Below, in pieces: positions 18,113 through 62,486 of a stretch of DNA of 64,000 nt. Source of the DNA: Flavobacteriaceae bacterium (GTDB lineage Bacteria; Bacteroidota; Bacteroidia; Flavobacteriales; Flavobacteriaceae); NCBI GenBank assembly GCA_947456955.1, contig CANGTQ010000005.1, positions 8,880 through 72,879 on the forward strand, written 5' to 3'. The notes below the pieces were generated by a model, which made no database searches, was not told where the DNA came from, and was given only the letters and a program-made list of their open reading frames with translations. How positions within the stretch are numbered: position 1 is the first letter of the stretch; every line of letters starts with the position of its first letter. The position numbers and the translations under genes are program-made.

Positions 18113-18120
18113 AAAAAAAA

Positions 18121-38323: not shown

Positions 38324-38327
38324 TTAG

Positions 38328-38431: not shown

Positions 38432-38570
38432 GAAGGCAGATTTCTTAACTGAAAACTGCAACCGCAACTGAAAACTAGACCACTCAAAACTTTACAAGAA
38501 TGTTAACAAAATTCCGTTGGCAAAGCCATAAATAATTGTATTTTTACGGCTCTAAATTTTTTAAAATTAA

Positions 38571-39338: not shown

Positions 39339-39341
39339 GCC

Positions 39342-40798: not shown

Positions 40799-41509
40799 AT
40801 GAAAATAGCCTTATTAGGATATGGTAAAATGGGCAAAGTAATCGAAGGGATTGCTTTAGAAAGAGGTCATAAAATTGTATTAAAAAAAGACGAATTTAAC
40901 ACTTTTGATGGCTTAGCTTCTGCAGATGTTGCTATTGATTTTAGTGCGCCAAAAGTTGCGATTGAAAATATTTCTGCTGCTATCAATCATGGAATTCCGG
41001 TAGTTTCGGGAACAACAGGTTGGTTAGAAGATTATCATTTAATGGAGAAGCTTTGTCTTGAAAAAAATGCAGCATTTTTGTATGGCTCTAACTTTAGTTT
41101 AGGAGTCAATATTTTTTTTGAACTTAATGATTATCTAGCAAAGATGATGGCTAAGTTTAAAGATTACAAAGTTTCAATGGAAGAAATCCATCACACCCAA
41201 AAATTGGACAAACCAAGCGGAACTGCCATTTCATTGGCAAATGCTATCATCAATCATACAGATAAAAACAATTGGGCAATCGAAAACCCAAAAGAAGATG
41301 ATGTTTTTATCGATGTAAAAAGAATTGATGATGTACCTGGAACACATAGTGTTTATTACAATTCAGATGTTGACTTTATTGAAATTAAGCATGTAGCCCA
41401 TAACCGCGAAGGCTTTGCTCTTGGTGCAATCATTGCTGCCGAATGGATCATTGGTAAAAAAGGAGTTTTCTCTATGAAAGATGTTTTAGGATTAGATAAT
41501 AGAATATAG
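40799..41509 (+). CDS. dapB: 4-hydroxy-tetrahydrodipicolinate reductase
   Basis: 236 aa. MKIALLGYGKMG, EEIHHTQKLDKPSGTA. Confidence 0.92.
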   Translation: MKIALLGYGKMGKVIEGIALERGHKIVLKKDEFNTFDGLASADVAIDFSAPKVAIENISAAINHGIPVVSGTTGWLEDYHLMEKLCLEKNAAFLYGSNFSLGVNIFFELNDYLAKMMAKFKDYKVSMEEIHHTQKLDKPSGTAISLANAIINHTDKNNWAIENPKEDDVFIDVKRIDDVPGTHSVYYNSDVDFIEIKHVAHNREGFALGAIIAAEWIIGKKGVFSMKDVLGLDNRI

Positions 41510-41544
41510 ATAATAGAATATAGACTTGAATGAGTTCTAATAAA

Positions 41545-41720
41545 CGTCATAATTACAAGAATTTAAAGTTTTCGTAATTGGGAATCGAAATTGCAAATGA
41601 TATATCTGATATTTTAATTGATTTTGCTAAAACATGAAAGATATGACTAAAGTTCCCAAATCAGCAGATGCTCTGTTTCAATGCCAAGTAATATAGCTGA
41701 AGGCTTATCAAGTATCAATT
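41545..41720 (+). pseudogene. Decayed four-helix-bundle (23S IVS protein family) gene
   Basis: Three frames together read KRHNYKNLKVF / LGIEIANDISDILIDFAKT / ERYD*SSQISRCSVSMPSNIAEGLSSIN*. Compare the intact copy: KRHNFKKLKVWQMGMDLAKIIFDLTDTFPISEKYGLKSQMDRCSISIPSNIAEGLSR. Frameshifts, an in-frame stop and a truncation are present. Confidence 0.8.
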
Positions 41721-41772
41721 AAAACTCAGGTATCCAAAAAAAGCAGGCTATTATTTTAAACTTATTACTTAA

Positions 41773-42315
41773 ATGAAAAAAGAATTTATAACGATTTTTT
41801 GTATTTTAAGCTTATCATTATTGCTTTTAAGCTTTAAAACAAAACAGAAAAACGAAAGAACCAAAATAAATATTGATTTGTCATTGGTTTTGCCTGCTCA
41901 TGTAGAAGAGCAAGAAAAATTATTTTCTATGCTTAAAAAAACCAATCCAAATTTTATTTTTTTTAGGTCTTTTTTAACTTCAAAAAGCAGAAAGGCTTTT
42001 TTTGGTGTATCAAGGTATGAAAATTCAGAACCAGAAAAATTAGATGATGTTTTTTATCAACAAACTGTAAATCATAAGGATAACAGACTTGGGAACAACT
42101 ATAAATTAATTTCTTATAGAAAATACAAAAGTGGCAATAAATATCTTTATGAAAAAGTTAGTAGCCCTAATAAGGGGCAATGTTGTGTCATGTATTACTT
42201 TATGAAAAATAATTTCAGTAATGTTATGTATGAAATAAAACTATCAGGAGAAATAAATCAAATGGAGGAAATGAGAAACATTGCTAAAAAAATTGCATTA
42301 ACTGTAAGATTGTAA
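41773..42315 (+). CDS. Hypothetical secreted/membrane-anchored protein
   Basis: 180 aa. N-terminal hydrophobic segment FITIFCILSLSLLLLSF. No recognisable domain. Confidence 0.5.
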   Translation: MKKEFITIFCILSLSLLLLSFKTKQKNERTKINIDLSLVLPAHVEEQEKLFSMLKKTNPNFIFFRSFLTSKSRKAFFGVSRYENSEPEKLDDVFYQQTVNHKDNRLGNNYKLISYRKYKSGNKYLYEKVSSPNKGQCCVMYYFMKNNFSNVMYEIKLSGEINQMEEMRNIAKKIALTVRL

Positions 42316-42430
42316 GACACTTTCCAAAAAAGTGTATAAGTTATAAATAAAGGGGTTTGACATTTTCTTTAAGTCTTGAAACCAAAGTGAACTCTTCCTG
42401 AGCGAGCAGCTATTTCAATTTATCCCAACA

Positions 42431-42610
42431 TTATTCACAAAACCAAATTTTTTCCCTGTCCACTTGTTATATAGTTCCATCTGCGTCGTTCATCATACAC
42501 TCTTTGTTGTTTTTACAATCTGAAAGTCCAAGATTATGTCCTATTTCAAGCACTAAAATAATCTTAGTTTTAAAATGGTAAACAAAGCTTTTATTAGGGT
42601 TGATAAACAT
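42431..42610 (-). pseudogene. Possible remnant of an archaemetzincin-like zinc metalloprotease C-terminus
   Basis: Own translation: MFINPNKSFVYHFKTKIILVLEIGHNLGLSDCKNNKECMMNDADGTI*QVDREKIWFCE*. It resembles the HExGHxxGLxHC...CvM...D....C end of archaemetzincins. The first His is replaced, there is an in-frame stop and no N-terminal domain. Confidence 0.35.
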
Positions 42611-42714
42611 AATTATTGTGTAAAATTCAAAATCAATTTTACAATTTTATATAGTTATCATTAAAATATTGTCAAAAATTTTGCAACTTCAAATTTTATT
42701 TATATCTCTGCAAA

Positions 42715-42831
42715 GTATTTCGAACCCATTAAGGGTACCAACCGAGTGAAGACACCACGGTGGTAAAACAATACGGACCCTCAGGTCAAAATAAACGTAA
42801 GTTTCTCGATGGCTTTTATTGATCGAAATAC
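42715..42831 (+). ncRNA. Candidate structured RNA / 5' leader of the downstream orphan operon (unclassified)
   Basis: A perfect 9-bp closing stem gtatttcga (42715-23) / tcgaaatac (42823-31) encloses several elements. These are hairpin ACCC-attaa-GGGT (42724-36), helix cca..cgag (42738-46) / ctcg.tgg (42805-12), and hairpin GACC-ctca-GGTC (42776-87). The segment is locally GC-enriched within a very AT-rich spacer. It has no ORF with a start codon and ends 30 nt before ATG 42862. Confidence 0.35.
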
Positions 42832-42861
42832 AAACTAAATTATTAATTAAAATTTGTTTGT

Positions 42862-43260
42862 ATGAAAGAATTATGTCACTTTAGATTAAAAGATAAGACA
42901 ACATTATCCTTTGAAACCATCCCTGTTGAAGTAAAACAAAATTATGTAAAAACCAAACCTTTACAGAATTATAGTTCAACCTATTTTTTTCTTTCTATTG
43001 CTCATAATCAATTAAACACTTTTATTGATTTAACTGGTTTTGAACCTTGTGTTATTCTGTATTTTGATGACAATCTATTTTTTGAAGGTGCCTCCTATTA
43101 TAGTGTTTCTTCTACTAGTTTTTATTGTATTCAAACACAATCCAAAAATATAATCTTGGCAAAACTACCACAAGATCTTCCTTTAAATTCATTATTGAAT
43201 ATTAGTACTTTAAAAGAAACTTTAAATTTTATTTCTTATGAAAACTTCCTTTCAAGATAA
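42862..43260 (+). CDS. Hypothetical protein (orphan, 132 aa)
   Basis: First ORF after the structured RNA. Overlaps the next ORF by 23 nt. No recognisable motif. Confidence 0.55.
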   Translation: MKELCHFRLKDKTTLSFETIPVEVKQNYVKTKPLQNYSSTYFFLSIAHNQLNTFIDLTGFEPCVILYFDDNLFFEGASYYSVSSTSFYCIQTQSKNIILAKLPQDLPLNSLLNISTLKETLNFISYENFLSR

Positions 43261-44095
43261 AATTAATCAATGTCAATTGGCTACTAAAGCACAAATCCAA
43301 TATTTGAAAAATTACAAAAGTAAGATTGAAGAAAGTTTAGTTTTTGATTCTTTTTTTTCAGAAAGTAAATATAAAGGTCAAGACAGCTTTTTTGAATTAT
43401 GGAATTGTTATGGATTATCTGATGATAATATGAGTTGGCTTAATTTTGGATTTCAAAGTAATGTAACATTATTTCATTCAAAGTATCATTTGATGGAAAA
43501 ATGGTTTGAAATATTATTTAGTAAAAAAATAGCTTTTAAGCCCTTTTTTGATATTGAAATTGAACATCATAACCGAATAAGAGAAAATGCAAATAAAAAA
43601 GGTATTAAAAACTTAGTATTGATTGTAGATTTTGATAAAATAGCTAAAATAATAGACGATCATTTTATTAGTGTTAGTAATTCAAAATTAAATATTAATA
43701 CAGTAAATGGCGCTACAATTACACCTCCAGCTCAAATAGACGAGGCATTAGTAGTTGTACTTTTGAATGTTTCGTATACGGATATTAGTACTATATCTGA
43801 ACTTAAAAACTGGATTTATTTAATTACAAATACTGAAAATCAAACTTTAACAGAACGCTTGTCCTATTTAAATATCTTGGCTAATTCACTAAATGAAGCC
43901 ATGAAAACTTCTGATCATGCTTTATCAAAAGCCTATTTATATGGACTGTATTCACAACTATTAAAATGGATTCATGAAACGTTAGACTTGGTAGAATGGA
44001 CTTGTGATGCTGACTATGAAAAACTACCAATACTCCTATTAAAAGAATTTAAAACGTGTAAATGTTTGCACATGTGGAAAAGTAAAAACAATTAA
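43238..44095 (+). CDS. Hypothetical protein (orphan, 285 aa, predicted mostly helical)
   Basis: Overlapping start with the upstream ORF suggests translational coupling. No recognisable motif. Confidence 0.6.
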   Translation: MKTSFQDKINQCQLATKAQIQYLKNYKSKIEESLVFDSFFSESKYKGQDSFFELWNCYGLSDDNMSWLNFGFQSNVTLFHSKYHLMEKWFEILFSKKIAFKPFFDIEIEHHNRIRENANKKGIKNLVLIVDFDKIAKIIDDHFISVSNSKLNINTVNGATITPPAQIDEALVVVLLNVSYTDISTISELKNWIYLITNTENQTLTERLSYLNILANSLNEAMKTSDHALSKAYLYGLYSQLLKWIHETLDLVEWTCDADYEKLPILLLKEFKTCKCLHMWKSKNN

Positions 44096-44121
44096 TTCAA
44101 AACAAATTACAATATAATAAG

Positions 44122-44556
44122 ATGAAAAATATAGAACAATCAAATTGGTGGGAACACAACCATTTTATCAATGGTTATGGTAAATTCCCTTATGTAATAT
44201 TAAAAGTTGGGTATGCATTATTTATGCAAATTCCGATACACTTCAATAAGAATAATGATATAATCAATTACCCAGGTAGCCATATCAATGGTGTTTCTGA
44301 AACAGATTTAAAAGCCTATGAGTATAACAAATTAAGTTCACTGCACGAAAAAATCATCGAGCATTGCAAATGGATGAAAAATAAAATTGAAGCTGACCGA
44401 GGCGGAACTGTAAAAATGTGCTTGGTAGAAGGACCAGATGTTTCGTATTATTTTGAAGGAGATACAATAGACTTTAGCACGAATATACCTGGTGGAGGCA
44501 CTTTACTCACTCAAGATCATAAAGTAATTGGAATGAATGTCAAACATTATTTATAA
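44122..44556 (+). CDS. Hypothetical protein (orphan, 144 aa)
   Basis: 26 nt after the previous ORF. No recognisable motif. Confidence 0.55.
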   Translation: MKNIEQSNWWEHNHFINGYGKFPYVILKVGYALFMQIPIHFNKNNDIINYPGSHINGVSETDLKAYEYNKLSSLHEKIIEHCKWMKNKIEADRGGTVKMCLVEGPDVSYYFEGDTIDFSTNIPGGGTLLTQDHKVIGMNVKHYL

Positions 44557-44670
44557 CTAAAACTAAAAACAAACGCTTATGTAAAAACAAAGAATTTAAG
44601 GTTAAACAAAAAAGTCAAAGAAGAAATAATCCCATTCCCATTTTTAATTTTAATTTTAAAACCAAATAAC

Positions 44671-45384
44671 ATGATTGTAATTAAATCAGAAGCCTTTATT
44701 ACTGATAAGGGTAAAAGTGAAATTAATGAAGATACCCTGAAGTGTCAGTCGGGTAAATTTTATGTCGTGTGCGATGGTGTAGGTGGAAATGGGAATGGAT
44801 TATTAGCCTCTCAATTGCTTGTTGAATCTGTAGCAAATTCTTTGTCTCATTCTGAGGATTTAGTCATAGCTATTGCTTTAAAAGAAGCTGAAAAAGCTTT
44901 AGAGGATTATAAAAGGAAAAATAAAAATACGTATCTAATGGCCAGTACCCTTGCCTTAACCAAAATTACTGATTCTTCAATACTCATTGGATGGGTTGGT
45001 GACAGCAGGGTGTATCAATTTAGAAATGGTAAAATTATATACAAAACCACAGACCACTCCTGGATTAGTGATGCTATAAAAGGAGGAAGTATTACAGCGT
45101 TAGAAGGACTTTTTCACCCGGAACGCAATAGATTAACAAGAAGTGTAAAAGGGAATTCGCAACCCACTGTAATGGATGAACATATACTAACTAATTTAGA
45201 AGACAATGACTATATTCTAATTTGTTCGGATGGTATTATGGAATCATGGATTGATGAAGATTTAGAAAACTTGTTTTCTGAAGTAAAACCTGCCTCCTAT
45301 TTCGTTCAAAAGCTTCATGAAAATTGCCAACTTTTTTCTAATGACAATTATACTGCTATAGTCTATCAAATAAGTAAATTATAA
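44671..45384 (+). CDS. PP2C-family serine/threonine protein phosphatase
   Basis: NEDT, VVCDGVGGNGNG, WVGDSRVY, DHSW, LICSDGI, a PPM metal-binding motif series. No cognate kinase in the window. Confidence 0.85.
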   Translation: MIVIKSEAFITDKGKSEINEDTLKCQSGKFYVVCDGVGGNGNGLLASQLLVESVANSLSHSEDLVIAIALKEAEKALEDYKRKNKNTYLMASTLALTKITDSSILIGWVGDSRVYQFRNGKIIYKTTDHSWISDAIKGGSITALEGLFHPERNRLTRSVKGNSQPTVMDEHILTNLEDNDYILICSDGIMESWIDEDLENLFSEVKPASYFVQKLHENCQLFSNDNYTAIVYQISKL

Positions 45385-45405
45385 AATTATAAAATTATTA
45401 AACAT

Positions 45406-45813
45406 ATGATCTCAAAAGAATTATTACTGGGTTACGAAGCTACATGTTATAGTATTCTAAATCCTAAAATCGATATTTATCTCGGTAAAGAAAATGAAGC
45501 ATTACAGTCTTTTTTAAAAGAACATGATTTCAAATCTTGGTGCTTCATAACGGCTTGGAATCCTTTTTCAAAAGCACTATCCGTTGAAGAAAACATAGCG
45601 TTGAATTCACTTCTTGAACAAGACTTAACCCATTATGCTGTATTTGCTGCAGAAGGTAAAGACACCATAGGAAATTGGCCTCCTGAAATCAGTTTTTTTG
45701 TTGGTAATATTTCGAGAGAAGACACCATCTATTTGGGAAAGAAATACCAACAAAATGCAATCGTTTTTGGCGAAATCAATGAATCGGCAGAGCTAATTTT
45801 ATTAGTTGATTAA
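45406..45813 (+). CDS. DUF3293-like protein
   Basis: 135 aa. WCFITAWNPFSKALSVEENIALNSLLEQDL...WPPEISFFVGNIS...QNAIVFG pattern recalled from the DUF3293 family. Assignment from memory of the family signature. Confidence 0.5.
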   Translation: MISKELLLGYEATCYSILNPKIDIYLGKENEALQSFLKEHDFKSWCFITAWNPFSKALSVEENIALNSLLEQDLTHYAVFAAEGKDTIGNWPPEISFFVGNISREDTIYLGKKYQQNAIVFGEINESAELILLVD

Positions 45814-45905
45814 ATAAAATTCATAATCACTTATCATCAATGTGTAGAAGCAAAAATAATTTAAAGAGTATAAAAGTATTGTTGTTTAAATAATCAAATA
45901 TAAAT

Positions 45906-46652
45906 ATGAAATTTAAAAAGAGTATTTTCTTTATAGTAACTGTATTAATATTGAGTTGTAGTATCTATTTCTTTAAAGAAAAGTGGTATCCACTTCTAAA
46001 GCGATATTATAGTAAGTACAATAAAATAACCAATCGTGAAGATATTATTTACGACACTAAAACAGCAGTCTGGGGGATTGATTTATCTCATCATCAAGGT
46101 GATGTCAACTGGGATAAACTGGTAACAAGTAAGCCCCATTTTGTTTTTTGTAAAGTAACTGAAGGAAAATCACATAAAGACACCAAATATAATTATCACC
46201 GCACCCAGGCAAGAAAAAACAACATCAAAATGGGTGCCTATCATTTCTTTAGTTACAATAGTTCTGGTAAGTCGCAAGCAAACTATTTTATAAAGCATGC
46301 CAAATTACAAAAGGGAGATTTACCCTATGTATTGGATGCAGAGTATATGCCTAAAATGCCAAATAGGAAAGCGGTTACCAGGGAACTACTCTCTTTTTTA
46401 CAAACCGTTGAAAAGCAAACAAATGTTAGACCCATACTATACTGTGATAAGAATTTTTATGCTAAATATATAAAAGGATACACTAAAAAAGAATATACAC
46501 TATGGTTATGTGATTATAACAGAAAACCCAATATACCCCATTCATTCTGGCAAAAAACTGATAAATTTAAAGTAGAAGGAATATACGGAAATGTTGATTT
46601 TAATGTTTTTAACGGAAACAAAGAGCAATTACAACAATTAACAATAGACTAA
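45906..46652 (+). CDS. GH25 muramidase (lysozyme) with N-terminal membrane anchor
   Basis: N-terminal TM SIFFIVTVLILSCSIYFF. GH25 motifs WGIDLSHHQGDVNWDKL, CKVTEG, GAYHFF, LDAEY. Confidence 0.85.
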   Translation: MKFKKSIFFIVTVLILSCSIYFFKEKWYPLLKRYYSKYNKITNREDIIYDTKTAVWGIDLSHHQGDVNWDKLVTSKPHFVFCKVTEGKSHKDTKYNYHRTQARKNNIKMGAYHFFSYNSSGKSQANYFIKHAKLQKGDLPYVLDAEYMPKMPNRKAVTRELLSFLQTVEKQTNVRPILYCDKNFYAKYIKGYTKKEYTLWLCDYNRKPNIPHSFWQKTDKFKVEGIYGNVDFNVFNGNKEQLQQLTID

Positions 46653-46654
46653 TT

Positions 46655-47053
46655 TTGGCTCCAATCAAAAAAAAATATCAAAGAAAGGTTACTGACATTG
46701 CTACATTGCATTATATCAACTTAGATGGGATGAAAATTACTCTTTTTTCTCCCTATGAAGTAATGGTAAATGAGCTACTTTCTATTGGGGTTAATCCGAT
46801 GGGGAAAACTATTAAAGAATTGCAAATAGAAGTGAGCGAAATTATTCTTAAACACTATATGGATTGCCATTATGGAAAACGTTATATAGCTGGTAATTCA
46901 GAAAACAATAGGATAGATAGATACAATCAAAAAAGGGTAATTATACATCATTTAAAAGAACTTTCTTATTGGCTATATGATTACGATTCTAAAAAAATGC
47001 CTAAAAACATAAAGTTCGATTTTGAATTACATAGAAAACATAATACAACCTAA
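46655..47053 (+). CDS. Hypothetical protein (orphan, 132 aa; TTG start, alternative ATG 105 nt downstream)
   Basis: Starts 2 nt after the GH25 stop. No recognisable motif. Confidence 0.45.
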   Translation: MAPIKKKYQRKVTDIATLHYINLDGMKITLFSPYEVMVNELLSIGVNPMGKTIKELQIEVSEIILKHYMDCHYGKRYIAGNSENNRIDRYNQKRVIIHHLKELSYWLYDYDSKKMPKNIKFDFELHRKHNTT

Positions 47054-47267
47054 TTATGAACATTACTGATTGGATTGCCCATGCCGATTTACTTTACAAT
47101 CAATTATTTCTGATTGTAATGGGTGGTCTATATGTATTGGCTTACCTCACTGGTTACACATAAAAACGATGGGATCTTAAATTTAATAATTAAGATAAAA
47201 TGATTGACTTATTACATTTAAATTTTTCAAATCAAAAAGAAACGAATTAGAAGAGTAGTTTTTAGTA

Positions 47268-47636
47268 CTAAATAAATCTATTTCTTTTTGCTTCGTCATA
47301 CCACTGCTTAATTTCTTGTCTTCGTCCATTATTTTCGAAAGTTTCCATTACTACTTTTTTAAGCATGTAATGGAGTTTTCTTTCAATTAGTTCTGGGGCT
47401 TCGGCAATTGGAATGAAAAAAATTTGTTCTTTTTCGTAGGCATCAAAATTGAGTTTGAGTTTTACAGCGCGGGTGTATCTTTCTATTACTTGAATAGTTA
47501 TATCCATGTATAGAATTGTTCCTTCTTGTACGCAATAATATTCTCCATCATCTCCTGGTATTGGTAGTTGAATTTTTACCTGAGGATAAATAAGGTTTTC
47601 GAGTATGAAGTCAATGTATTTTTGTCTTATTGCCAT
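47268..47636 (-). CDS. Hypothetical protein (orphan, 122 aa), last gene of nuclease-helicase/SIR2 triad
   Basis: Starts 10 nt after the SIR2 stop. No recognisable motif. Confidence 0.55.
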   Translation of the reverse strand: MAIRQKYIDFILENLIYPQVKIQLPIPGDDGEYYCVQEGTILYMDITIQVIERYTRAVKLKLNFDAYEKEQIFFIPIAEAPELIERKLHYMLKKVVMETFENNGRRQEIKQWYDEAKRNRFI

Positions 47637-47646
47637 TTTTGTAATT

Positions 47647-48351
47647 TTATAGTTTACTTAGTACTTCATACAATTGCCGCATGCCATTCGTAGCTTTTTC
47701 AGAGAGGTAGTAAATAGAACGTTCGTCGTCAATATCCATTTCGTGTGCTAGTGGGTCGATTACTACCATTTGGCTAGCAAAAGGCACATAGTGCGGCAAG
47801 GCATTTGCAGGACTTACCATTAAAGACGTTCCAACTACTACAAACACAGAACAGGTAACGGCTTCTTTTATAGCGGCATCATGAATGGATTGGTCTAATC
47901 CTTCACCAAAAAATACAATATGCGGTCGGAGTTGAGAATTTTGGTCACAAAGGTCGCCTATAAGTACATCTCCTTCCCTATCGTATAGTAATTTAGGATC
48001 AGCTGTTGAACGCGATTTCATGAGTTCGCCGTGCAAATGAATAACTTTGGTTGAACCTGCACGCTCGTGGAGGTTGTCTACGTTTTGGGTTACTATAACT
48101 ACTTCATAGTTTTCTTCTAATTTAGCTATGAGTTCGTGCGCTAAATTAGGCTGTGCTTCGTGGCATTGTTTTCGGCGTTGGTTGTAAAATTCAAGTACAA
48201 GCCCCGGATTGTTGTTCCATGCTTCTGGGGTGCAAACGTCTTCTATTTTGTAATTATCCCAAAGACCGTCTTCAGAGTCTCTGAAAGTTTGCAAGCCACT
48301 CTCGGCTGATATACCGGCTCCTGTGAGGAAAAGTAATTTTGGTTTTTTCAT
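47647..48351 (-). CDS. SIR2-family NAD-dependent protein deacylase-like protein
   Basis: FLTGAGISAESG, FRD..GLW, TQNVDNLHERAG, HLHGE (catalytic His), VVGTSLMV. Short Bacteroidota-type sirtuin without zinc-ribbon cysteines. Confidence 0.88.
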   Translation of the reverse strand: MKKPKLLFLTGAGISAESGLQTFRDSEDGLWDNYKIEDVCTPEAWNNNPGLVLEFYNQRRKQCHEAQPNLAHELIAKLEENYEVVIVTQNVDNLHERAGSTKVIHLHGELMKSRSTADPKLLYDREGDVLIGDLCDQNSQLRPHIVFFGEGLDQSIHDAAIKEAVTCSVFVVVGTSLMVSPANALPHYVPFASQMVVIDPLAHEMDIDDERSIYYLSEKATNGMRQLYEVLSKL

Positions 48352-48386
48352 GGGTAGAATTCTTTATTAAAAGAGATCAAAATCTA

Positions 48387-51746: not shown

Positions 51747-51814
51747 GCGATTATTTTATTTTATAAGAGCTAACTATCTAATTAATATAATTTAAGCTAA
51801 ATTTACTTTTGATT

Positions 51815-56100: not shown

Positions 56101-56189
56101 GATTCGCCAAGAACTCCATTTTCAAAATCAATTTCGTGTTCTCCTTTTAGAGAATGTATATTTTTAAATTTTACTTTACAAATTTTCAT
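53172..56189 (-). CDS. sbcC: SbcC/Rad50-family ATPase
   Basis: 1005 aa. Walker A ITGATGTGKSS, long coiled coil with zinc hook GKPCPLCGS, signature SLSGGETF, Walker B LFIDEGFGSLD. Confidence 0.9.
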   Translation of the reverse strand: MKICKVKFKNIHSLKGEHEIDFENGVLGESGLFVITGATGTGKSSILDVITLALFNRIPRIDSAITESIIEKEGVILTKNALDCFAEIEYEVKGIKYRSNWSIRRTRTGTLDSRKQDLTNVETNAIIVSGIKDVVKKNEEIIGLNFDQFVQSMILAQGQFSKLLLAKKDERNLILEKITGSSVYRRIGVLVFERYREVKESVEIQKTKMGETVLLEQEEIDKINADINTNMPLLEVEKTKHKSFNDKKVIKESIQKNQLIKEKNQADWAAFLELQKAFASQENKLVIHDDLVVFRDEMNQIEQYKNTASKLSETIFTLDENRRTFENQKAANIVLASKLIGKTITETDFELELDSFLKQVVALQNDEQSKLSKTEQEFQRLKDKLEFLVPFGILLKINEELYEKIQEEINSISILIKQSGLCTIEEVLSKKIEFANLILPATQLISKRKLYDSKKEAIESLTKNIASQKEKLAEAIEEEKQLKTKIEVVEPKVKIAAAELEDWKSRKSLDQHRSELEEGKPCPLCGSESHPYSENIEEALINALQEKWEVLSSELNTYQKEHFKLIGNITNLKELGVTDADKLKTQSTDFISQETDVKTLCDQLNWNLNSLIVEWEAGLTTYQEKQSELDILEKKFQAFKGLEDLKNTYNNHLLLNKEYIKAKDIRNSIYNGNDINTEVNTLKTNFVLCNSSIKGLSLQIKANQENLKIAIDTHKSLSEFLFSKLESKGIKSLEELKAKLLDETKAAEIRSESLEIKTREVALKTTITATDQILEEENKLDDTSITLDELIELLPKLSEAISELQKHIWDQEQKIKVNEENKQRLQKSQETLDALLKDLSLWSKMNALIGDGQGKKFSNFVQDLTLRQLIEYGNKRLAGFSDRYLLEVANDSDALQVIDTYMGNSKRSVTSLSGGETFKLSLALAFGLSDLAARNVNIESLFIDEGFGSLDPESLDQAITILENMQNESNKSIGIISHVGELKDRIGTKIKLLKTGAGYSTIEIE

Positions 56190-56212
56190 AATGATGAATT
56201 GAGCTTATTGAA

Positions 56213-57430
56213 TTATTCTATTGAAGTTGAATCACCTATTTTTTCCAAGATTTCTTTAAATGCAAAAATTAATTCTTCTGTATTTTCTAAAGAATCATCT
56301 TGTTCCAATCGCTTTTCAAACAATTGAACAGGTGAAAAATCGCCAATATCTTCACCTGCGTTAAGCAAAACAGAAGTGCCTACTAACTTGTTTTTAAAAT
56401 TAATACGTCCTTTCAAAATTTGGAAGCCTTTTTGTGCTTCGGCTGTTAAAAGTTCCTCCAACATTCGAATATGCTCTATATTTTCATTTTCCTCTTCAAT
56501 TAAAAGCTCTATCAAATCAGTCAGAGGCGATTCTGTATTATACGACTCGAGACTGTATTTAACTTCGGCTAAAGTGCCTTCCATACGAATCAACTTTCTG
56601 AATTTAGGAATTTTGATAGAAGAAATTTCAAAATTATCTCCTTGAAGTTCTAAAATTACGACTTCCTTTTGGTCATCTTTTTCACTAAAACTTAATTGAA
56701 TGGGTGAACCACTATAACGGATGTGATCCAGGCCAACAATTTGAGGTTTGTGTATGTGACCTAAAGCAACATAATTTGGTGTATCTCCGAAAATTTTAGC
56801 CTCTACTCCTGCTTGATTACCTATTTGGATTTCTCTTTCACTTTCAGACACTATCGCGCCTTGAGCATATAAATGAGCCATTACTATAAATGGAATTCCT
56901 TTATAATTTATGGAATAATACTCATTTACCTTAGCAAAATAATTTGCAATACCACAACGAATTAATTCAATTTTATCTTCATATGATTCACCAGGAAGTG
57001 CATTTCTAATATCTTTATCTCTCAAAAAAGGAATGGCAGCTACAACTACCTTTTGATTGTCAATTTCAATTTCAACAAATAATTCAGAAATATCATTAGG
57101 TACACCGCCCACAACTTTGATTTCTAAAATTTCTAGAAGTTCTTTTGGTGCATTTATAACATGGGGAGAATCATGATTCCCTCCTGTTAGTATTACCTTA
57201 CACTTTAATGGTAATAGCTGCTTTAAAAAGGAATAATACTGTTTCATTGCCGCTTGAGAAGGATTGGCTTGGTCAAACAAATCACCTGACATTAACAATA
57301 CATTGATATTGTTTTCTTGAATAGTATTAATTAACCATTCAAAAAAAAGATCCATATCATCTGAAAAATCAACTTTTAACAATTGTTTTCCAATATGCCA
57401 ATCGGCAGTGTGTAATATTTTTAATCTCAT
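56213..57430 (-). CDS. sbcD: SbcD/Mre11-family nuclease
   Basis: HTADWHIG, SGDLFD, GGNHDS, MAHL, GHIH calcineurin-like phosphoesterase motifs. 405 aa. Confidence 0.9.
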   Translation of the reverse strand: MRLKILHTADWHIGKQLLKVDFSDDMDLFFEWLINTIQENNINVLLMSGDLFDQANPSQAAMKQYYSFLKQLLPLKCKVILTGGNHDSPHVINAPKELLEILEIKVVGGVPNDISELFVEIEIDNQKVVVAAIPFLRDKDIRNALPGESYEDKIELIRCGIANYFAKVNEYYSINYKGIPFIVMAHLYAQGAIVSESEREIQIGNQAGVEAKIFGDTPNYVALGHIHKPQIVGLDHIRYSGSPIQLSFSEKDDQKEVVILELQGDNFEISSIKIPKFRKLIRMEGTLAEVKYSLESYNTESPLTDLIELLIEEENENIEHIRMLEELLTAEAQKGFQILKGRINFKNKLVGTSVLLNAGEDIGDFSPVQLFEKRLEQDDSLENTEELIFAFKEILEKIGDSTSIE

Positions 57431-57441
57431 AATTTATAATC

Positions 57442-58071
57442 TTACCATGGTTTTATTTTCATATAATAATCCAAAAATGCTTTTACTAATAAGTCGGTTG
57501 GAGTTTCAACTTTTAATGTTTGACTAAAAATAACTAACTCTTGTGCAATACGAATGACTTCCTTTCTGGCGACTATATCTTTACATCCAGAAACATCATA
57601 ATGCCAACCAAACTTTATTAAATATTCTTTAAATCGATGACGCTCTTCGGGCAAATAGAAAAACCTATTATAATCCAACACATCAACATCATATAAAATT
57701 TGTTCTTCCAAAAGTTTGTCATTATCTTTTAATATCATAATAGATGTTTTATAAGCATATTCACTATCAAAACCTTTTCTACTTAAATAACTGTAGCATA
57801 TTCTAGAACTCTTAAATTCCCATAAATCCTCTCCATTATCTTGTCGTGCGGAATCATGAAATAAAATAGCGTAAAATGATTTTTCAATATCAATAGTAAC
57901 TTTATGCTTTTTATAATAGCAATACATCAAATCTGCCAAAAGTAAACACCTTATAATATGAAATCTACCATGAAAACTTTCTAAATCAAAAGTTTCTTCA
58001 TGTTTTTGATATAAAGACGCTATTTCATCTTTAAAGAAATTAAGGGCATTATTTAATTGTGATGATACCAT
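57442..58071 (-). CDS. HD-domain-like phosphohydrolase (uncharacterised)
   Basis: 209 aa. H...H (FHGRFH) then LFHDSAR (HD dyad) and a later DVDVLD. Stop is 11 nt before the sbcD start. Confidence 0.55.
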   Translation of the reverse strand: MVSSQLNNALNFFKDEIASLYQKHEETFDLESFHGRFHIIRCLLLADLMYCYYKKHKVTIDIEKSFYAILFHDSARQDNGEDLWEFKSSRICYSYLSRKGFDSEYAYKTSIMILKDNDKLLEEQILYDVDVLDYNRFFYLPEERHRFKEYLIKFGWHYDVSGCKDIVARKEVIRIAQELVIFSQTLKVETPTDLLVKAFLDYYMKIKPW

Positions 58072-58172
58072 TTAAATCATTTTTTTTGTTTATGTATAAT
58101 TGAAGCTTACAATTTTAAGCAATAATGTTGTTTTAAAAATTTTAATACAATTATAGTTATCAATTACTTTAA

Positions 58173-59111
58173 TTAATCTTTTAATATATAAATTAATTCA
58201 TCTATTTTCTCTTTTTCAAGTATAGGTAAAATCCAACTTTTTGGAATTGCAGCATAACCATAAAACAAACCTGCCAATCCTCCCGTTACAGCTCCCGTTG
58301 TATCGGTATCGCCACCTAAATTAACGGCTTTTAGAACAGCGTCTTCATAAGTATCTGTAGTTAACAAACACCAAATACTGGCTTCTAATGTTTGAATGAC
58401 ATATCCACCACTTTGGATTAGATTTTCATTTAATTCATAAATATTTCCGTTAATAAGTCTGTCAAAATGGGGTAATTCAACGCTGTAAATTTTATTAGAA
58501 TTTAAAAACTCAGGGACAGTTTTTTTAAGATTTTCATAAATCTCAAATTTGTCTTTACCTTCCATTAGTTGTAATGCAAACTCTAAGTAATAGAAACAAG
58601 AAATAACAGAACGATTATGTGCATGGGTAATGGATGAAGCTTCTTTTACTAAGTCAAAACGTTTCTCGATACTTAAATCTTTAAGTAGCAATGCTAATGG
58701 TAATATCCGCATTAAGGAACCATTACCATTATCAATTTCATTTTGACCTCCAGCGAGGTTTGGATGAACTCCTTTACTAAGATTGATGATCGATTGCCTT
58801 GTCGTATTTCCAATATCAAATACTTCTCCCGTTGCGGTCCAATAGCCTTCATTTTTCCATTTGATAAATTTACTGGCTAATCTATGGATGTCATATCCTT
58901 CAACAATAGATTCTGCCAAACAAAAAGTTAGCGAACTATCATCAGACCACACTCCTATTCCTTGGTCATGTACACCTCCAGAACCCATTTTTGTTACTGG
59001 ATTATTCTTTAAATATTCCCTACTCTCAAATTCAACAGGGACACCCAAAGCATCTCCCACGCAAACCCCATAGAGAATGTCTTTCAAATAATTTCTTGTT
59101 ACCCTATCCAT
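58173..59111 (-). CDS. ADP-ribosylglycohydrolase (ARH/DraG family)
   Basis: GVCVGDALGVPVEF, WSDDSS, GGDTDTTGAVTGGLAGLFYG. Confidence 0.88.
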   Translation of the reverse strand: MDRVTRNYLKDILYGVCVGDALGVPVEFESREYLKNNPVTKMGSGGVHDQGIGVWSDDSSLTFCLAESIVEGYDIHRLASKFIKWKNEGYWTATGEVFDIGNTTRQSIINLSKGVHPNLAGGQNEIDNGNGSLMRILPLALLLKDLSIEKRFDLVKEASSITHAHNRSVISCFYYLEFALQLMEGKDKFEIYENLKKTVPEFLNSNKIYSVELPHFDRLINGNIYELNENLIQSGGYVIQTLEASIWCLLTTDTYEDAVLKAVNLGGDTDTTGAVTGGLAGLFYGYAAIPKSWILPILEKEKIDELIYILKD

Positions 59112-59144
59112 ATTAATCTATTTATTTAAATTTCTTTATTCTCA

Positions 59145-59405
59145 TTAAAATTTATCTTTTTCATTTTTGTTATAATCTAAACAACCTTTGATATACGATA
59201 TAAACCCAATTAATTCATAAATAAAAACACCTATTATCCATTTTACCATTATGCTTGGAAAAGTAAAAAAAACAACAAAAATTACCACTGTGGAACATAA
59301 AGCATAAGTCTTAAATGCTCTATCTGAATATAATCTTAGAATATCCGAATAGCCAGCTGTAACTAGAAAATTAAAAATAAAGAAACCTAAGATAAATAGA
59401 TACAT
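59145..59405 (-). CDS. Small membrane protein (3 predicted TM)
   Basis: 86 aa, three hydrophobic stretches. 33 nt upstream of ARH. Confidence 0.45.
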   Translation of the reverse strand: MYLFILGFFIFNFLVTAGYSDILRLYSDRAFKTYALCSTVVIFVVFFTFPSIMVKWIIGVFIYELIGFISYIKGCLDYNKNEKDKF

Positions 59406-59483
59406 AGTAAGTAGTTTTATATTAGTGATACAAATGTAGGAATCGATTTAGTCAAAATATGACAAAGTTATCTTCAATTATAT

Positions 59484-60989
59484 TCAATCTGTCCCTAAGT
59501 ATTCCATATCCTTATTTTCTCCCAATTCATTTTTATAACAAACACCAATACCATTTTTTGTATTTATCTCCCCTAGTAAATGTAAATCAGTAAATCCATA
59601 ACAATGATTAATTAATATCGATTTTATTTTATTTAATGCAAACAAGGGTTTTATTGATTGTATTTTATTACAATCACAAAGTTGAATATATTCAAGATTT
59701 TTTAAGTTGGACAGCAATTCAAGATTATCAATTATATTATTATTTTCTATATAGAATTCTTTAAGGTTTTTTAAATATTTGATAGCATTAATATCTTCCA
59801 AAGAAGGCAAATTGTAAAAAGAAATGTCACTGATCTTGTTACATTTTGAAAGTGAATTAAGTGATTTTAAATTGTGGAAATCACCTAGATTCAAGCATCT
59901 GAGATTGATTAAGTTTTCAAATCCGTGTATTGTTTTTACAGAAGAATTATAAATAGATAATTCTTCTAATTGCTGGCATTTTGTTAATAAACCTAAAGAT
60001 TTAAGGGCATATACCGACCAAACTCTCAATGACTTTAATTTGCTTAAATCAGTAATGAAGGATAACGATTTTAATTTTTTATTATACATAAGTTCAAGTT
60101 TCTCTAAAGTAGTAAGTAAGCTAATGTTTTCATATTCAGAAAATACATTACAATCCTCAATTTGAAGAGATTTAATTTTTGTCAAATTATGAAATCCAAT
60201 AATTTCTTTTAATTTTCTATTGCTATTTATACTTAAACGTTTCAACGAATGTGGTTTGTCTAAATGAATTACTTTTATGGAATTACATTCTTGAATAGAC
60301 AAAACTTCCAATTTTTTAATAGCAAAAATGCCATCTATATTTTTTAATTTATCACAATAGGAAAGGTCAATAATTTTAAGATTACTTAATTTCATTATTT
60401 TTTCAATTCCTTTTATATTATTGCAGTTATAGAGTTGAATTTCATTTAATTCACTTAGCTTTTCAATACTTTTTAAATCAGTAATTGAATTACAATAATA
60501 CATCGCCAAACATTTCAGATTTGAAAGACTTTCTAGCGGTTTTAAATTGGTTAAATTTTGTGTTTTAAAATAAATGGTCAGTAAATTGGAATATGTTTTA
60601 CTAAAGCCCGTAAAACATTTTCTGTCTTCCAAAATGTCAATACTTTTTACTCTTGTATTTTCGTTAAGTGTATTTAAAATTTCTAAATCAGGAAACTCAA
60701 TACATTTTAGTTTTTCCAAACATGGCAACTCATTTACTGGACTTAAATCCAATAGAGAATTACAATTTTCTATGGAAAGTACCCGTAATTTTTTAAACGA
60801 ACCTATTGCTGACAAATCTTTGAAATTCTCACAACTTGTAATGGAGATTTTTTCTAGGTCTTGTAATAGAATAAAAGGCTCTAAATTTTCAATTGATGAA
60901 TTGTCTTTTAATTCTAACTTTTTTAAATTGAAGGCAAAAGATTGATTTTCACCATTACTGAGCGTAATGGTAATAAATTCGTTTTTCAT
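59484..60989 (-). CDS. Leucine-rich repeat protein (cysteine-containing, RNI/FBXL-like LRRs)
   Basis: 501 aa. About 18 tandem 22-24 aa units of the form L..L..L.l..C..l.dl..l (e.g. LKKLRVLSIENCNSLLDLSPV, LSNLKCLAMYYCNSITDLKSI). No signal peptide. Confidence 0.8.
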   Translation of the reverse strand: MKNEFITITLSNGENQSFAFNLKKLELKDNSSIENLEPFILLQDLEKISITSCENFKDLSAIGSFKKLRVLSIENCNSLLDLSPVNELPCLEKLKCIEFPDLEILNTLNENTRVKSIDILEDRKCFTGFSKTYSNLLTIYFKTQNLTNLKPLESLSNLKCLAMYYCNSITDLKSIEKLSELNEIQLYNCNNIKGIEKIMKLSNLKIIDLSYCDKLKNIDGIFAIKKLEVLSIQECNSIKVIHLDKPHSLKRLSINSNRKLKEIIGFHNLTKIKSLQIEDCNVFSEYENISLLTTLEKLELMYNKKLKSLSFITDLSKLKSLRVWSVYALKSLGLLTKCQQLEELSIYNSSVKTIHGFENLINLRCLNLGDFHNLKSLNSLSKCNKISDISFYNLPSLEDINAIKYLKNLKEFYIENNNIIDNLELLSNLKNLEYIQLCDCNKIQSIKPLFALNKIKSILINHCYGFTDLHLLGEINTKNGIGVCYKNELGENKDMEYLGTD

Positions 60990-61035
60990 AATTGATTTAG
61001 GAAGTTGTTACTAAATTATTTATTATTCAGTGAGT

Positions 61036-61482
61036 TTATAATAAGTTTTTAATTCTGGTAGAAATTTGGTCATCTTCATCGATTACTTCTCTTAATTCTG
61101 GATTTATTTCAATAGCTTTTAATAAAAATTCCAAATTATTTTTTAGAGCAACCGAACCCCACAATATTGGATTCCCGACAGGAACATCTACTCTTATGGC
61201 ATCAAGCATTAATTCTTCATTATCCGATAGACTGTCATCTGCAAAAATGAGAAACGAAGAATCACAACCACTTTTTAACAAACCTTCTCTAATGAAACTA
61301 ACATCTTTCGAATAGTATTTCTTAATTATAGATTTATATTCATTAAGAGGTTCTTCATCCCAAAGCCAAATATCAGGATTGCATAAAAGCAAAATTTCTT
61401 TGTCGCATTTTAGTTCATAGCTGAGATTTTGGAATTCGTAAGTATCGTCCTCAATAATATCTAGTGCTTCGTCTTTTGTCAT
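61036..61482 (-). CDS. DUF4116-like repeat protein
   Basis: 148 aa. Repeated D.E..L.a.. units (CDKEILLLC, DNEELMLDAIRVD, NNLEFLLKAIEINPEL). Assignment by pattern. Confidence 0.45.
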   Translation of the reverse strand: MTKDEALDIIEDDTYEFQNLSYELKCDKEILLLCNPDIWLWDEEPLNEYKSIIKKYYSKDVSFIREGLLKSGCDSSFLIFADDSLSDNEELMLDAIRVDVPVGNPILWGSVALKNNLEFLLKAIEINPELREVIDEDDQISTRIKNLL

Positions 61483-61534
61483 TTTTGTTTTTTTTATAAG
61501 TAATTAGTAAAACGAGATTGTACTATTTAATAAT

Positions 61535-61864
61535 TCAGTAATCAAATGTATCTAAAAATTTTAATTCTGTTGCTGTGAGATTATCCAAACCAACTTCATT
61601 TATTTTATCCAAAATGACATTTAAGGTTTCCGTAGTATCTATTGCTTCCCAATGGTCGTAATAACGTTCATCAAAAATAGATTTAGATTGAGCGTAGTTA
61701 TTTAGACAAACTAAAATTAATATAAATGGTATTATTTTATTTGGTGTGTATTTAGCAGCAATAGCAAAGGGTTTGGAGCAGGATAAGAAAAAATTAGTAG
61801 TAAGGATTGAAAATTTATTCTTATGTATTGAAGTTAAATTATAAATTTGAAAAACCTTGGGCAA
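61535..61864 (-). CDS. Hypothetical small protein (start uncertain)
   Basis: 109 aa ORF. Internal signal-like IIPFILILVCLNNYAQ, C-terminal LDKINEVGLDNLTATELKFL motif. 9 nt after the upstream gene. Confidence 0.4.
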   Translation of the reverse strand: MPKVFQIYNLTSIHKNKFSILTTNFFLSCSKPFAIAAKYTPNKIIPFILILVCLNNYAQSKSIFDERYYDHWEAIDTTETLNVILDKINEVGLDNLTATELKFLDTFDY

Positions 61865-61873
61865 TTCAAAACC

Positions 61874-62431
61874 TTAAAGATGTAAATCAACCAATTGCAA
61901 GGCTTCAAAAAAATCGATTGCTTTAACTTCTTCAAAAAAATCTATTTCACTCTCATGTGGAAGAAAATCAGAAATTATACGAATAATAAAATCTTGTGGT
62001 TTTTTTAAAAACATAAAGGTATAGTCTTCCATATTTACAACTGTTCGTTCAGCCAAATCGGTTGTTCTTACAAATTTATCAGAAGTTAGTGATGTTAAAA
62101 ATGGTAGTTGTGTTTTGGACAATGTATTAATTGGCGCTCCATTTTCAAACAAACCACCTTCGTAACCATACAAAGAGGAATTTGTGATTTCTATTGGTTT
62201 TCCAAATCCTAAATAGGCTGGTAACTCATTTTGTTTTCCAACAATAGCTGCAAATCCCATTAAAATACAAACATCATGATGGGGTAAATTCATAAGTGCT
62301 TTTGCGGCACTCTCTCTACCAATGCCAGATACAACAACTTTATAATTATGTTTCAAATCGGGAATACGAGACAAGGCATCATGTACTTTCTCTTGTTCTA
62401 TTTCCATTGGGGTAAGGATGATAATATTCAT
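61874..62431 (-). CDS. Short MTAN/PNP_UDP_1-like nucleosidase/phosphorylase family protein
   Basis: 185 aa. IIILTPMEIE, VVSGIGRESAAKAL, ILMGFAAIVG, VVNMEDY and IRIISDF match the nucleosidase-fold GIG..AA, ME and ISD positions. 55 nt downstream of psuG. Confidence 0.6.
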   Translation of the reverse strand: MNIIILTPMEIEQEKVHDALSRIPDLKHNYKVVVSGIGRESAAKALMNLPHHDVCILMGFAAIVGKQNELPAYLGFGKPIEITNSSLYGYEGGLFENGAPINTLSKTQLPFLTSLTSDKFVRTTDLAERTVVNMEDYTFMFLKKPQDFIIRIISDFLPHESEIDFFEEVKAIDFFEALQLVDLHL

Positions 62432-62486
62432 TTTATATAGTTTAATTTCAAAAAAGCATTTTGGAAAATGAACAGATGGGTATTTT

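Follow-up and report, generated by a model that had tools for sequence, protein, structure and literature searches.

A probable chromosomal plasticity zone at a lineage-specific synteny breakpoint downstream of dapB in a Flavobacterium-like organism

Results

Gene content and composition of the interval

The window analyzed here is a 64,000-nucleotide stretch of the 148-kb metagenome contig k141_483716 (ENA ERZ27280134), which comes from a Flavobacterium-like organism, and this report concerns the interval at positions 41510–62431 within it. The interval follows parA, parB, a DUF5683 gene, and dapB, and consists of eight open reading frames (ORFs) on the forward strand that end at 47053 and thirteen ORFs on the reverse strand (47268–62431), after which psuG and psuK are encountered. 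An earlier note, made from the sequence alone, had read the interval as a single accessory block of about 21 kb inserted after dapB. The comparisons described below indicate that it is most probably a chromosomal plasticity zone, located at a lineage-specific synteny breakpoint after dapB and composed of five layers, rather than a single acquired island. ORFs referred to by letter are listed with all other features in Table 1.

About half of the 21 ORFs are without a Pfam domain, in agreement with the earlier note, and the ten orphans gave no match when searched against the PHROG and PADLOC models. The PP2C, GH25, SIR2, ADP-ribosylglycohydrolase, LRR, and RecB-nuclease/SF1-helicase domains that had been listed were found; the HD protein proved to carry a motif without a profile match, and the MTAN-like nucleosidase was not supported. 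Overlooked at that stage were the genes for SbcC and SbcD, which together take up 4.3 kb, a fifth of the block, and a SAM-I/IV riboswitch (42710–42803). The two gene blocks converge where this had been described, with ends at 47053 and 47268. Coding strand and GC skew both change sign at about 47.1 kb, with the cumulative skew maximal at 47–48 kb and declining steadily thereafter; this switch might simply track gene orientation. As had been stated, integrase, recombinase, or transposase Pfam domains are present in none of the ORFs between 41.5 and 62.4 kb, no tRNA gene was found in the window, and no pair of direct or inverted repeats brackets the block or any sub-segment of it.

The interval had also been judged more AT-rich by eye, and its GC content is indeed 0.301, compared with 0.341 for positions 1–41509. 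The drop is concentrated in two patches, at 42–45 kb (GC 0.27) and at 58–62 kb (GC 0.25–0.28). Tetranucleotide analysis, which had been proposed as a check, deviates in the same two patches (z of 2–4 and 3–6, respectively) and not uniformly over the block; the stretch with the sirtuin and helicase genes (47–51 kb) is core-like in composition, with a GC content of 0.34.

The dapB junction is a synteny breakpoint

Relatives were collected by a scan at one genome per species, which yielded 80 Flavobacterium loci with a dapB 68–89% identical to that of the window. The parA-parB-DUF5683-dapB block is collinear in all 80. The sequence after dapB was long enough to be examined in 76 loci. In all 76, a lepB-like gene (Peptidase_S26 plus DUF5684) starts less than 600 bp after dapB, and it is followed by wbqC in 75 of these. 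Neither lepB nor wbqC was found in the window or in the 9.4 kb past its right end (none within 32 kb). The genes of the right flank, namely psuG, psuK, a sulfur transporter gene, kdsA, an M28 peptidase gene, menC, menA, and menB, were likewise searched for in the 80 relatives, and none lies within 10 kb of dapB. The block thus begins at the dapB stop codon (41509), as had been claimed, with a sharp break in synteny relative to 76 of 76 relatives. Aligning the dapB and psuG/psuK flanks against related genomes had been suggested as a means of defining the end points of an insertion, but the two flanks adjoin in no relative. Because the right flank does not continue the dapB neighborhood in any relative, the left edge is a rearrangement breakpoint; the dapB stop codon marks a break in synteny and is not the border of an insertion between matching flanks. 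An independent assembly from another study (L095) is 100% identical to the window over 35918–49338, across the dapB junction.

Two gene remnants had been proposed at this border, and both are real, as their repaired translations match 23S_rRNA_IVP and the C-terminus of Peptidase_M54. Three-frame translation of the M54 remnant revealed in-frame stops and decay of the HEIGH motif to LEIGH. Between the two remnants lies the orphan ORF A.

Gene content differs repeatedly from a close strain

The only close strain compared is represented by a contig from a third study (L086), the SbcC of which is about 99% identical to that of the window (98.5% by tblastn). A blastn comparison revealed five collinear blocks of 92.2–98.3% identity, interrupted by four differences (Table 1). 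As at a hot spot, gene content has therefore changed four times, independently, between strains that are 92–98% identical, within conserved anchors. Comparison of the junction sequences detected no repeats at any of the joins between the two sequences. The insert of L086 at difference 3 is a GmrSD-type gene (17488–19605 of L086) that matches Pfam GmrSD_N and GmrSD_C as well as PADLOC HEC-06 (E 1e-50), and the corresponding 19 bases of the window, at the convergence point, are an insertion/deletion hot spot. The uneven identity of the shared blocks suggests recombination between strains.

The most deviant patch in composition is the 3.7-kb stretch of difference 1. Because a T-like ORF directly abuts O in L085, the genes from the ADP-ribosylglycohydrolase (ARH) to the DUF4116 protein appear to have been inserted between T and O. 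The best NCBIfam match of the ARH is a Tri1-type ADP-ribosylarginine hydrolase, an immunity-type enzyme (178 bits, below the cut-off), and no ADP-ribosyltransferase gene is found nearby.

The right boundary of the block had been placed at 62431, the end of gene U. This gene is conserved in eight other Flavobacterium genomes, where it lies beside an aminotransferase gene upstream of parA, and in L086, where it is contiguous with both psuG and O. Gene U therefore belongs to the chromosome backbone of the psuG/psuK flank and 62431 is not an island edge; the boundary in composition and between strains is located at 61872. The suggested MTAN-like nucleosidase function of U was also not borne out, as searches of Pfam, NCBIfam, and the PDB with the single sequence and with a nine-sequence profile returned no PNP_UDP_1/MTAN match. 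Among more distant relatives, U was observed upstream of parA in L031, L036, L038, L040, L049, L073, and L080, in several of which it is directly beside a homologue of the aminotransferase gene at 36257–37384 of the window. These two genes lie 25 kb apart in the window, one on either side of the block, which again points to rearrangement around the locus.

A portable cassette follows the junction

The forward-strand ORFs from B onward belong to a 4.4-kb cassette for which copies were compared in the contexts L089–L093 and L096. By blastn against L089, L090, L091, and L092, homology to the window begins at 42675/42676 and ends at 47029–47060. L089 and L092 retain the genes in the order B-C-PP2C-DUF3293-H. 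In L096, the sequence of which stops shortly after C, the riboswitch, B, and C stand at the end. The unit thus occurs in three unrelated other contexts (L089, L092, and L096), two of which are beside known defense genes. In L089, it is surrounded by a tRNA gene and a SusC/SusD locus, and in L092 by a YkuD gene, a PLD gene, a resolvase gene, and an aspartic-protease-like gene, with the cassette located two genes upstream of the PLD gene, which has a weak DrmC-like match. In L096, it is directly downstream of a neighborhood that comprises a DrmD-like SNF2 fragment, a HEPN gene, and type III genes for a methyltransferase and a restriction enzyme. D and the GH25 gene are additions of the lineage of the window; in L089 and L092, H is followed by a YkuD gene instead. 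The tRNA gene of L089 (7751–7822) is about 2 kb upstream of the cassette, with two unannotated ORFs of about 200 amino acids in between, and could mark an integration site in that genome.

ORF B is predicted to be all-beta (model predicted local distance difference test score, pLDDT, of 66) and ORF C all-alpha (pLDDT 74); the latter is truncated by a deletion in L086. Foldseek searches with AlphaFold models of B and C returned no hit at E 0.001 in the PDB, nor in BFVD for C, and fold matches to 14-3-3 and 3pjy were dismissed as noise (template modeling score ≤0.55, E ≥0.03). The PP2C-type phosphatase scores 136 bits with NF033484 Stp1/IreP, for which the cut-off is 230, and has a weak match to PADLOC PDC-M21C (E 1e-7). 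A literature search on DUF3293 found nothing relevant. A phage or plasmid origin of the cassette was considered and rejected, as searches of the plasmid and phage collections with cassette DNA found nothing, B had no relatives in IMG/VR, and the orphans had no PHROG match.

The cassette genes are preceded by a SAM-I/IV riboswitch

The aptamer upstream of ORF B matches RF01725 over its full length. Five further loci score above the gathering threshold (44–53.7 bits), and the aptamer is present wherever the sequence upstream of B is available. Across four lineages, the leader shows 91% identity, compared with only 71–84% for B. Compensatory pair changes were found in P2 (CG to UA) and P3 (UA to AU), although with four leaders these are statistically weak. 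A conserved 12-bp hairpin overlaps the AUG of ORF B, which hints at translational control; folding gave no clear terminator or anti-terminator that could serve as the expression platform.

RF01725 is the variant SAM-I/SAM-IV class of Weinberg et al. 2010 (PMC2864571), which is without the P2 internal loop. The window sequence resembles this class (PMC2864571) in its short P2 stem, its full-length match above the gathering score, and its P2 and P3 compensatory changes. What differs is the set of genes downstream. SAM riboswitches usually control genes for methionine or S-adenosylmethionine (SAM) metabolism or transport. Here, two orphans, a PP2C phosphatase, a DUF3293 protein, and a further orphan follow instead, in a portable unit of which two contexts adjoin known defense genes, and no methionine- or SAM-related family was matched by B, C, D, PP2C, DUF3293, GH25, or H. 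By analogy with the SAM-I clan, abundant SAM would repress the cassette, and a drop in SAM would allow its expression. A literature search found no paper linking SAM riboswitches to defense islands.

A DNA-end-processing cluster is conserved in relatives

The reverse-strand genes from O to I (47268–58071) were compared with clusters in related genomes. In L082–L085 (including F. aciduliphilum), the order is (WYL)-O-sbcD-sbcC-(L)-K-(two genes of about 190 amino acids)-sirtuin, with proteins 54–63% (O), 77–83% (K), 82–90% (sirtuin), and 29–31% (SbcD) identical to those of the window and an SbcC of a 1013-residue type. Another arrangement was found in L088 (F. chungnamense), namely WYL-O-sbcD-sbcC-recD-recC-recB, and in L087, namely WYL-sbcD-sbcC-L-recD-recC-recB followed by a sirtuin gene. 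In these two, SbcC is of the 1005-residue type and 80–85% identical to that of the window, SbcD is 85–90% identical, and recD-recC-recB spans 13365–21701 and 6976–15321, respectively. Gene order thus shows K and RecBCD as alternatives at a single position, flanked by sbcDC and the sirtuin gene. Two types of sbcDC, with an SbcC of 1005 or 1013 residues, likewise alternate at the locus, and the window pairs the 1005-residue type with K.

ORF K encodes a protein of 1119 amino acids that combines an iron-staple RecB-type nuclease, an RNase-H-like domain, and an SF1B helicase of the Upf1/Dna2 type. Residues C21, C210, C213, C219, D132-T-K134, and Q146..Y150, the Walker A motif, and DEAGQ are invariant in ten homologues (57–81% identity). 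Mouse DNA2 is the first among its best PDB matches, which also include NAM7/Upf1 and IGHMBP2. The iron-staple cysteines with RecB-type motifs and the C-terminal SF1B helicase are, at the sequence level, those of a Dna2- or Bad-like protein. The homologues of K number 3834 across Bacteroidota with a smooth gradient of identity, and a metagenome scan with K detected a single locus. A literature search found no study of a TM0106-type nuclease-helicase. As K holds the position of recD-recC-recB in other Flavobacterium genomes, it may act together with SbcCD as an alternative enzyme of end resection.

SbcD scores above its NCBIfam cut-off; it is 85–98% identical in L086, L087, and L088 and only 29–31% identical to the SbcD encoded beside K in L082–L085. 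SbcC has the expected domains and a CxxC-like motif (CPLCGS) in the middle of the protein, with scores below the equivalog cut-offs (PRK10246, 361 bits; TIGR00618, 269 bits), and its homologues range from 99% down to 40% identity through Flavobacterium. The pair thus has the features of SbcCD. A foreign replacement of the sbcDC genes in the window, suggested by the low identity of SbcD to those of L082–L085, was rejected, as the 1005-residue SbcC is the common Flavobacterium type.

The sirtuin had been listed among conflict-system domains, an assignment that did not hold. It is a stand-alone canonical protein that is best matched in NCBIfam by the NAD-dependent protein deacylase family (198 bits, below the cut-off), shares 82–95% identity with its counterparts in L084–L086, and also ends the RecBCD-type cluster of L087. 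It matched no model for the defense SIR2 proteins of Thoeris (ThsA), DSR, SIR2-HerA, or SIR2-pAgo and has no sensor or partner fusion; its only PADLOC match is E 0.0015 over 36 residues. ORF O has the HD-type motif (H34, H38, H72-D73, and D128/D130), which is invariant in six homologues, and no profile match in Pfam, NCBIfam, or the PDB.

The two genes of about 190 amino acids, which lack a Pfam match, lie after K or recB and before the sirtuin gene in L083 (13357–14787), L084 (13383–14537), and L088 (21717–23018) and are absent from the window; an ORF of about 77 amino acids follows them in L083 and L088. The WYL-domain gene at the upstream end of the cluster (L083, 2927–3838; L084, 4028–4951; L087, 237–1148; L088, 7131–8042) precedes O, or directly sbcD in the case of L087, and none is present in the window or in L086.

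Table 1. Features of the interval and its borders, and blocks shared with or different from strain L086 (positions in the window)
Feature	Position	Strand	Evidence and remarks
dapB	40799–41509	+	TIGR00036, 141 bits (cut-off 122); last gene of the parA-parB-DUF5683-dapB block
Four-helix-bundle (23S rRNA intervening-sequence protein) gene fragment, truncated and frameshifted	41545–41720	+	Repaired peptide matches PF05635 (23S_rRNA_IVP), positions 9–50 of 106, E 5.4e-6
ORF A, orphan, 180 aa	41773–42315	+	Hydrophobic N-terminus; between both remnants; no Pfam, PADLOC, or PHROG match; present in L095
Archaemetzincin-like (peptidase M54) C-terminal remnant	42431–42610	-	PF07998, positions 149–193 of 194, E 1.9e-7
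Riboswitch cassette, 4.4 kb	42675–47060	+	Extent of DNA homology to copies in other contexts
SAM-I/IV riboswitch aptamer	42710–42803	+	RF01725, 52.8 bits (gathering 41.1), full length (1–99 of 99); 58 nt upstream of ORF B
ORF B, 132 aa	42862–43260	+	First gene after the riboswitch; narrow orphan family, 12 homologues (61–97% identity) among 5.8 billion proteins
ORF C, 285 aa	43238–44095	+	Overlaps B by 23 nt; narrow orphan family, 11 relatives among 1.84 billion representatives
ORF D, orphan, 144 aa	44122–44556	+	Lineage-specific insert; absent between C and PP2C in L089 and L092; deleted in L086
PP2C-type Ser/Thr phosphatase	44671–45384	+	Conserved member; PF13672, E 9e-12; 51% identical in L089 and L092
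DUF3293 protein	45406–45813	+	Conserved member; PF11697, E 1.2e-18; 57–59% identical in L089 and L092
GH25 muramidase	45906–46652	+	Variable slot; N-terminal hydrophobic segment; PF01183, E 2.7e-42; absent from the L089 and L092 cassettes
ORF H, 132 aa	46655–47053	+	Last conserved cassette gene; counterpart in L089 and L092, a 119-aa gene following DUF3293, is 38% identical; 90% in L086
ORF I, orphan, 122 aa	47268–47636	-	Downstream of sirtuin; 99% identical in L086; no family match
Sirtuin, stand-alone, canonical NAD-dependent deacylase type, 234 aa	47647–48351	-	PF02146, positions 1–180 of 180, E 1e-42
K, nuclease-helicase of the TM0106 family, 1119 aa	48387–51746	-	TIGR03491, 236 bits (cut-off 97); AAA_11, AAA_12, RNase_H_2
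L, orphan, 456 aa	51815–53185	-	Overlaps the sbcC stop; 84–89% identical in L083 and L087; fragments only in L086 and L088; no family match
SbcC (Rad50-like ATPase), 1005-aa type common in Flavobacterium	53172–56189	-	PF13558, AAA_29; top NCBIfam matches all SbcC
SbcD (Mre11-like nuclease)	56213–57430	-	TIGR00619, 175 bits (cut-off 78)
O, 209 aa	57442–58071	-	Immediately upstream of sbcD; 54–63% identical in L082–L085 and L088; 98% in L086
ADP-ribosylglycohydrolase (ARH)	58173–59111	-	Pfam
Strain-specific AT-rich insertion, 3.7 kb	58182–61872	-	112 unrelated bases in L086; GC 0.25–0.28, z 3–6
86-aa ORF	59145–59405	-	Within the insertion
LRR protein	59484–60989	-	Pfam
DUF4116 protein	61036–61482	-	Pfam
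ORF T	61535–61864	-	T-like ORF abuts O in L085
U, 185 aa	61874–62431	-	Conserved Flavobacterium gene; 68–76% identical in 8 relatives, 89% in L086
Shared block: psuK, psuG, U	61873–64000		92.3% identity to L086
Shared block: O, sbcD, sbcC, first 89 codons of L	52919–58181		98.3% identity to L086
Shared block: sirtuin, I	47162–48351		92.2% identity to L086
Shared block: H, GH25, DUF3293, PP2C	44630–47142		94.1% identity to L086
Shared block: B, first 40 codons of C	42944–43359		97.6% identity to L086
Difference 1: ARH, 86-aa ORF, LRR, DUF4116, T	58182–61872		L086 has 112 unrelated bases instead
Difference 2: most of L, all of K	48352–52918		L086 has 3.1 kb encoding 233-aa, WG-repeat/DUF4116, and 148-aa proteins
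Difference 3: 19 bases at the convergence point	47143–47161		L086 has a 2.5-kb GmrSD-type gene
Difference 4: most of C, all of D	43360–44629		Clean deletion in L086, 1–2 nt microhomology

Discussion

Taken in order along the window, the interval can be divided into five layers. The first (41510–42674) is junction debris, made up of the two pseudogene fragments and one orphan ORF. The second is the portable 4.4-kb cassette, in which the riboswitch, B, C, PP2C, DUF3293, and H form the unit and D and GH25 fill variable slots. The third (47268–58071), the conserved cluster, comprises O, SbcD, SbcC, L, K, the sirtuin, and I, with internal slots that are swapped between lineages. The fourth (58182–61872) is a strain-specific, AT-rich insertion of 3.7 kb with the ARH, LRR, and DUF4116 genes, and the fifth, gene U, is ordinary conserved chromosome. 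Gene flux through such a zone may proceed by recombination of the host and not by an element-encoded recombinase. Homologous exchange between conserved neighbors (O, sbcDC, L, and sirtuin) could swap whole slots, illegitimate joins could produce the smaller insertions and deletions, and debris would gather at the breakpoint. No element-encoded recombinase would be needed for this process, which fits the absence of recombinase genes.

Other explanations were weighed against a plasticity zone. A single island of about 21 kb, acquired in one event between dapB and psuG and deprived of its mobility genes since, would explain why synteny ends abruptly at the dapB stop codon and why pseudogene debris lies at the left edge, as well as the lower mean GC content and the many ORFs without an assigned domain. 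It is nevertheless very unlikely, as psuG and psuK do not continue the dapB neighborhood, the composition is heterogeneous and core-like at 47–51 kb, relatives share the gene order of the middle 10.8 kb at 54–90% identity, U is conserved across the genus, and the closest strain differs by four separate events. The break could be an artifact if two unrelated regions had been mis-assembled at the dapB junction, and the window does come from a metagenome contig and the break is abrupt; yet L095, from a different study and assembly, is identical across the junction, and proteins from the junction side are carried by four contigs, so that this explanation has next to no probability. Equally hard to sustain is an ordinary core genome that looks odd through poor annotation. 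U, O, K, SbcCD, and the sirtuin do have conserved homologues in relatives, but presence/absence differences from a strain 92–98% identical already refute this reading, homologues of B and C number only 12 and 11 in billions of proteins, two patches are strongly deviant in composition, and pseudogene debris is present.

That the whole interval is a defense island of anti-phage systems (SIR2, nuclease-helicase, SbcCD/Lamassu-like, ARH, and PP2C) is unlikely, although a fair number of observations point in this direction. PADLOC gave partial matches, namely of the K helicase to MkoA (163 bits), of SbcC to LmuB (E 1e-16), and of PP2C to PDC-M21C; the convergence gap holds a GmrSD enzyme in L086; in L096 the cassette adjoins type III restriction-modification and HEPN genes, and in L092 it lies near the weakly DrmC-like PLD gene; and WYL-domain genes flank the cluster in relatives. 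The PADLOC search of the translated ORFs, which had been proposed as a check, nevertheless yielded matches to single domains and no complete known system, with neither a PLD partner for a Mokosh-type helicase nor an LmuA effector. The sirtuin is full-length and canonical and has no sensor or effector fusion, SbcC and SbcD have their best NCBIfam matches to E. coli-type proteins and are of the common Flavobacterium type, the slot of K is shared with the repair enzyme RecBCD, and none of the ten orphans matches a PHROG or PADLOC model. The conflict-system character ascribed to the block by the earlier note therefore finds limited support, from the type III restriction-modification genes that adjoin the cassette in one genome and the GmrSD enzyme in another, neither of which was available to that note.

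The plasticity zone that we favor differs from a classical genomic island in four defining respects: no recombinase is present, there is no att site or tRNA with repeats, the flanks are adjacent nowhere else, and composition is not uniform. Chromosomal hot spots offer a closer parallel, as the locus has conserved anchors (dapB on one side and U, psuG, and psuK on the other), content that differs in a strain 92–98% identical, AT-rich patches, pseudogene debris, a defense gene in some strains (GmrSD in L086), and no element-encoded recombinase. Unlike at a typical hot spot, the anchors are neighbors in 0 of 80 relatives, so that the zone coincides with a rearrangement breakpoint, and half of it is a conserved repair-gene cluster with variable internal slots. 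Several observations weigh against the plasticity-zone interpretation or parts of it. The position of lepB in this genome was not found, which leaves room for a very large insertion (>32 kb); this is unlikely because the right flank carries kdsA and the men genes. L086 is a single close strain, and its sequence stops short of dapB. The cluster comparison covers eight contexts, all from one Flavobacterium clade. K is absent from L086 and could equally be an accessory, defense-type gene, and the fold of the whole riboswitch leader is not unusually stable (z -1.8).

K can be placed among several known helicase-nucleases. Bad, a bacterial DNA2-like helicase-nuclease of Geobacillus stearothermophilus, is described (PMC7430649) as rare and sporadic, occurring in Firmicutes, some Proteobacteria, and Mycobacteria; a term search of that paper found no mention of operon or genomic context. 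By architecture, K resembles Bad and DNA2 as these are presented there, with an N-terminal nuclease in which one Cys precedes and CxxCx5C follows the RecB-type core (the iron staple), and then an SF1B helicase. It differs from that description of Bad in its additional RNase_H_2 domain, its membership of the TM0106 family (TIGR03491), and its >3800 homologues across Bacteroidota, and also in its location beside sbcDC and its alternation with RecBCD. Like RecBCD/AddAB, K would be a helicase-nuclease machine, and the slot is the same (sbcD-sbcC-recD-recC-recB-...-sirtuin versus sbcD-sbcC-L-K-sirtuin); unlike RecBCD, it is a single polypeptide with a predicted SF1B helicase of the Upf1/Dna2 type, compared with the UvrD-type SF1A helicase, and a different arrangement of the nuclease. 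The resemblance to Mokosh MkoA is confined to the C-terminal helicase (model positions 759–1095 of 1112). Mokosh consists of MkoA and the PLD nuclease MkoB, or of an MkoC fusion, whereas neither K nor its neighbors contain a PLD domain, the nuclease of K is RecB-type, and its neighbors are sbcDC. SbcC in turn matches Lamassu LmuB weakly, and its neighbor is SbcD, with no LmuA or LmuC partner genes.

As a feature of the genome, the interval is an ordinary flexible region, and its reading as a single island should be dropped. The association of the riboswitch with the cassette raises a more speculative idea, namely that the riboswitch acts as an alarm for SAM depletion. B, C, PP2C, DUF3293, and H would then be silent at normal SAM levels and released at a collapse of SAM, as a second-line anti-phage or envelope-stress response, for which a phage SAM-degrading enzyme that disarms SAM-dependent restriction-modification would be a possible trigger. 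We consider such a role, which is suggested by association, distinctly improbable; if true, it would explain why a metabolite riboswitch travels with non-metabolic orphan genes, and why the unit is found beside type III restriction-modification in one genome and GmrSD in another and has decayed in one strain. Whatever its role, a riboswitch that is tightly and repeatedly linked to a portable non-metabolic operon either widens the SAM regulon or represents a new coupling of cell state to an accessory function. The presence of a TM0106-type K beside sbcDC, in the slot of RecBCD, likewise suggests a functional hypothesis, in which end resection in these bacteria may parallel the eukaryotic pairing of Mre11-Rad50 with Dna2.

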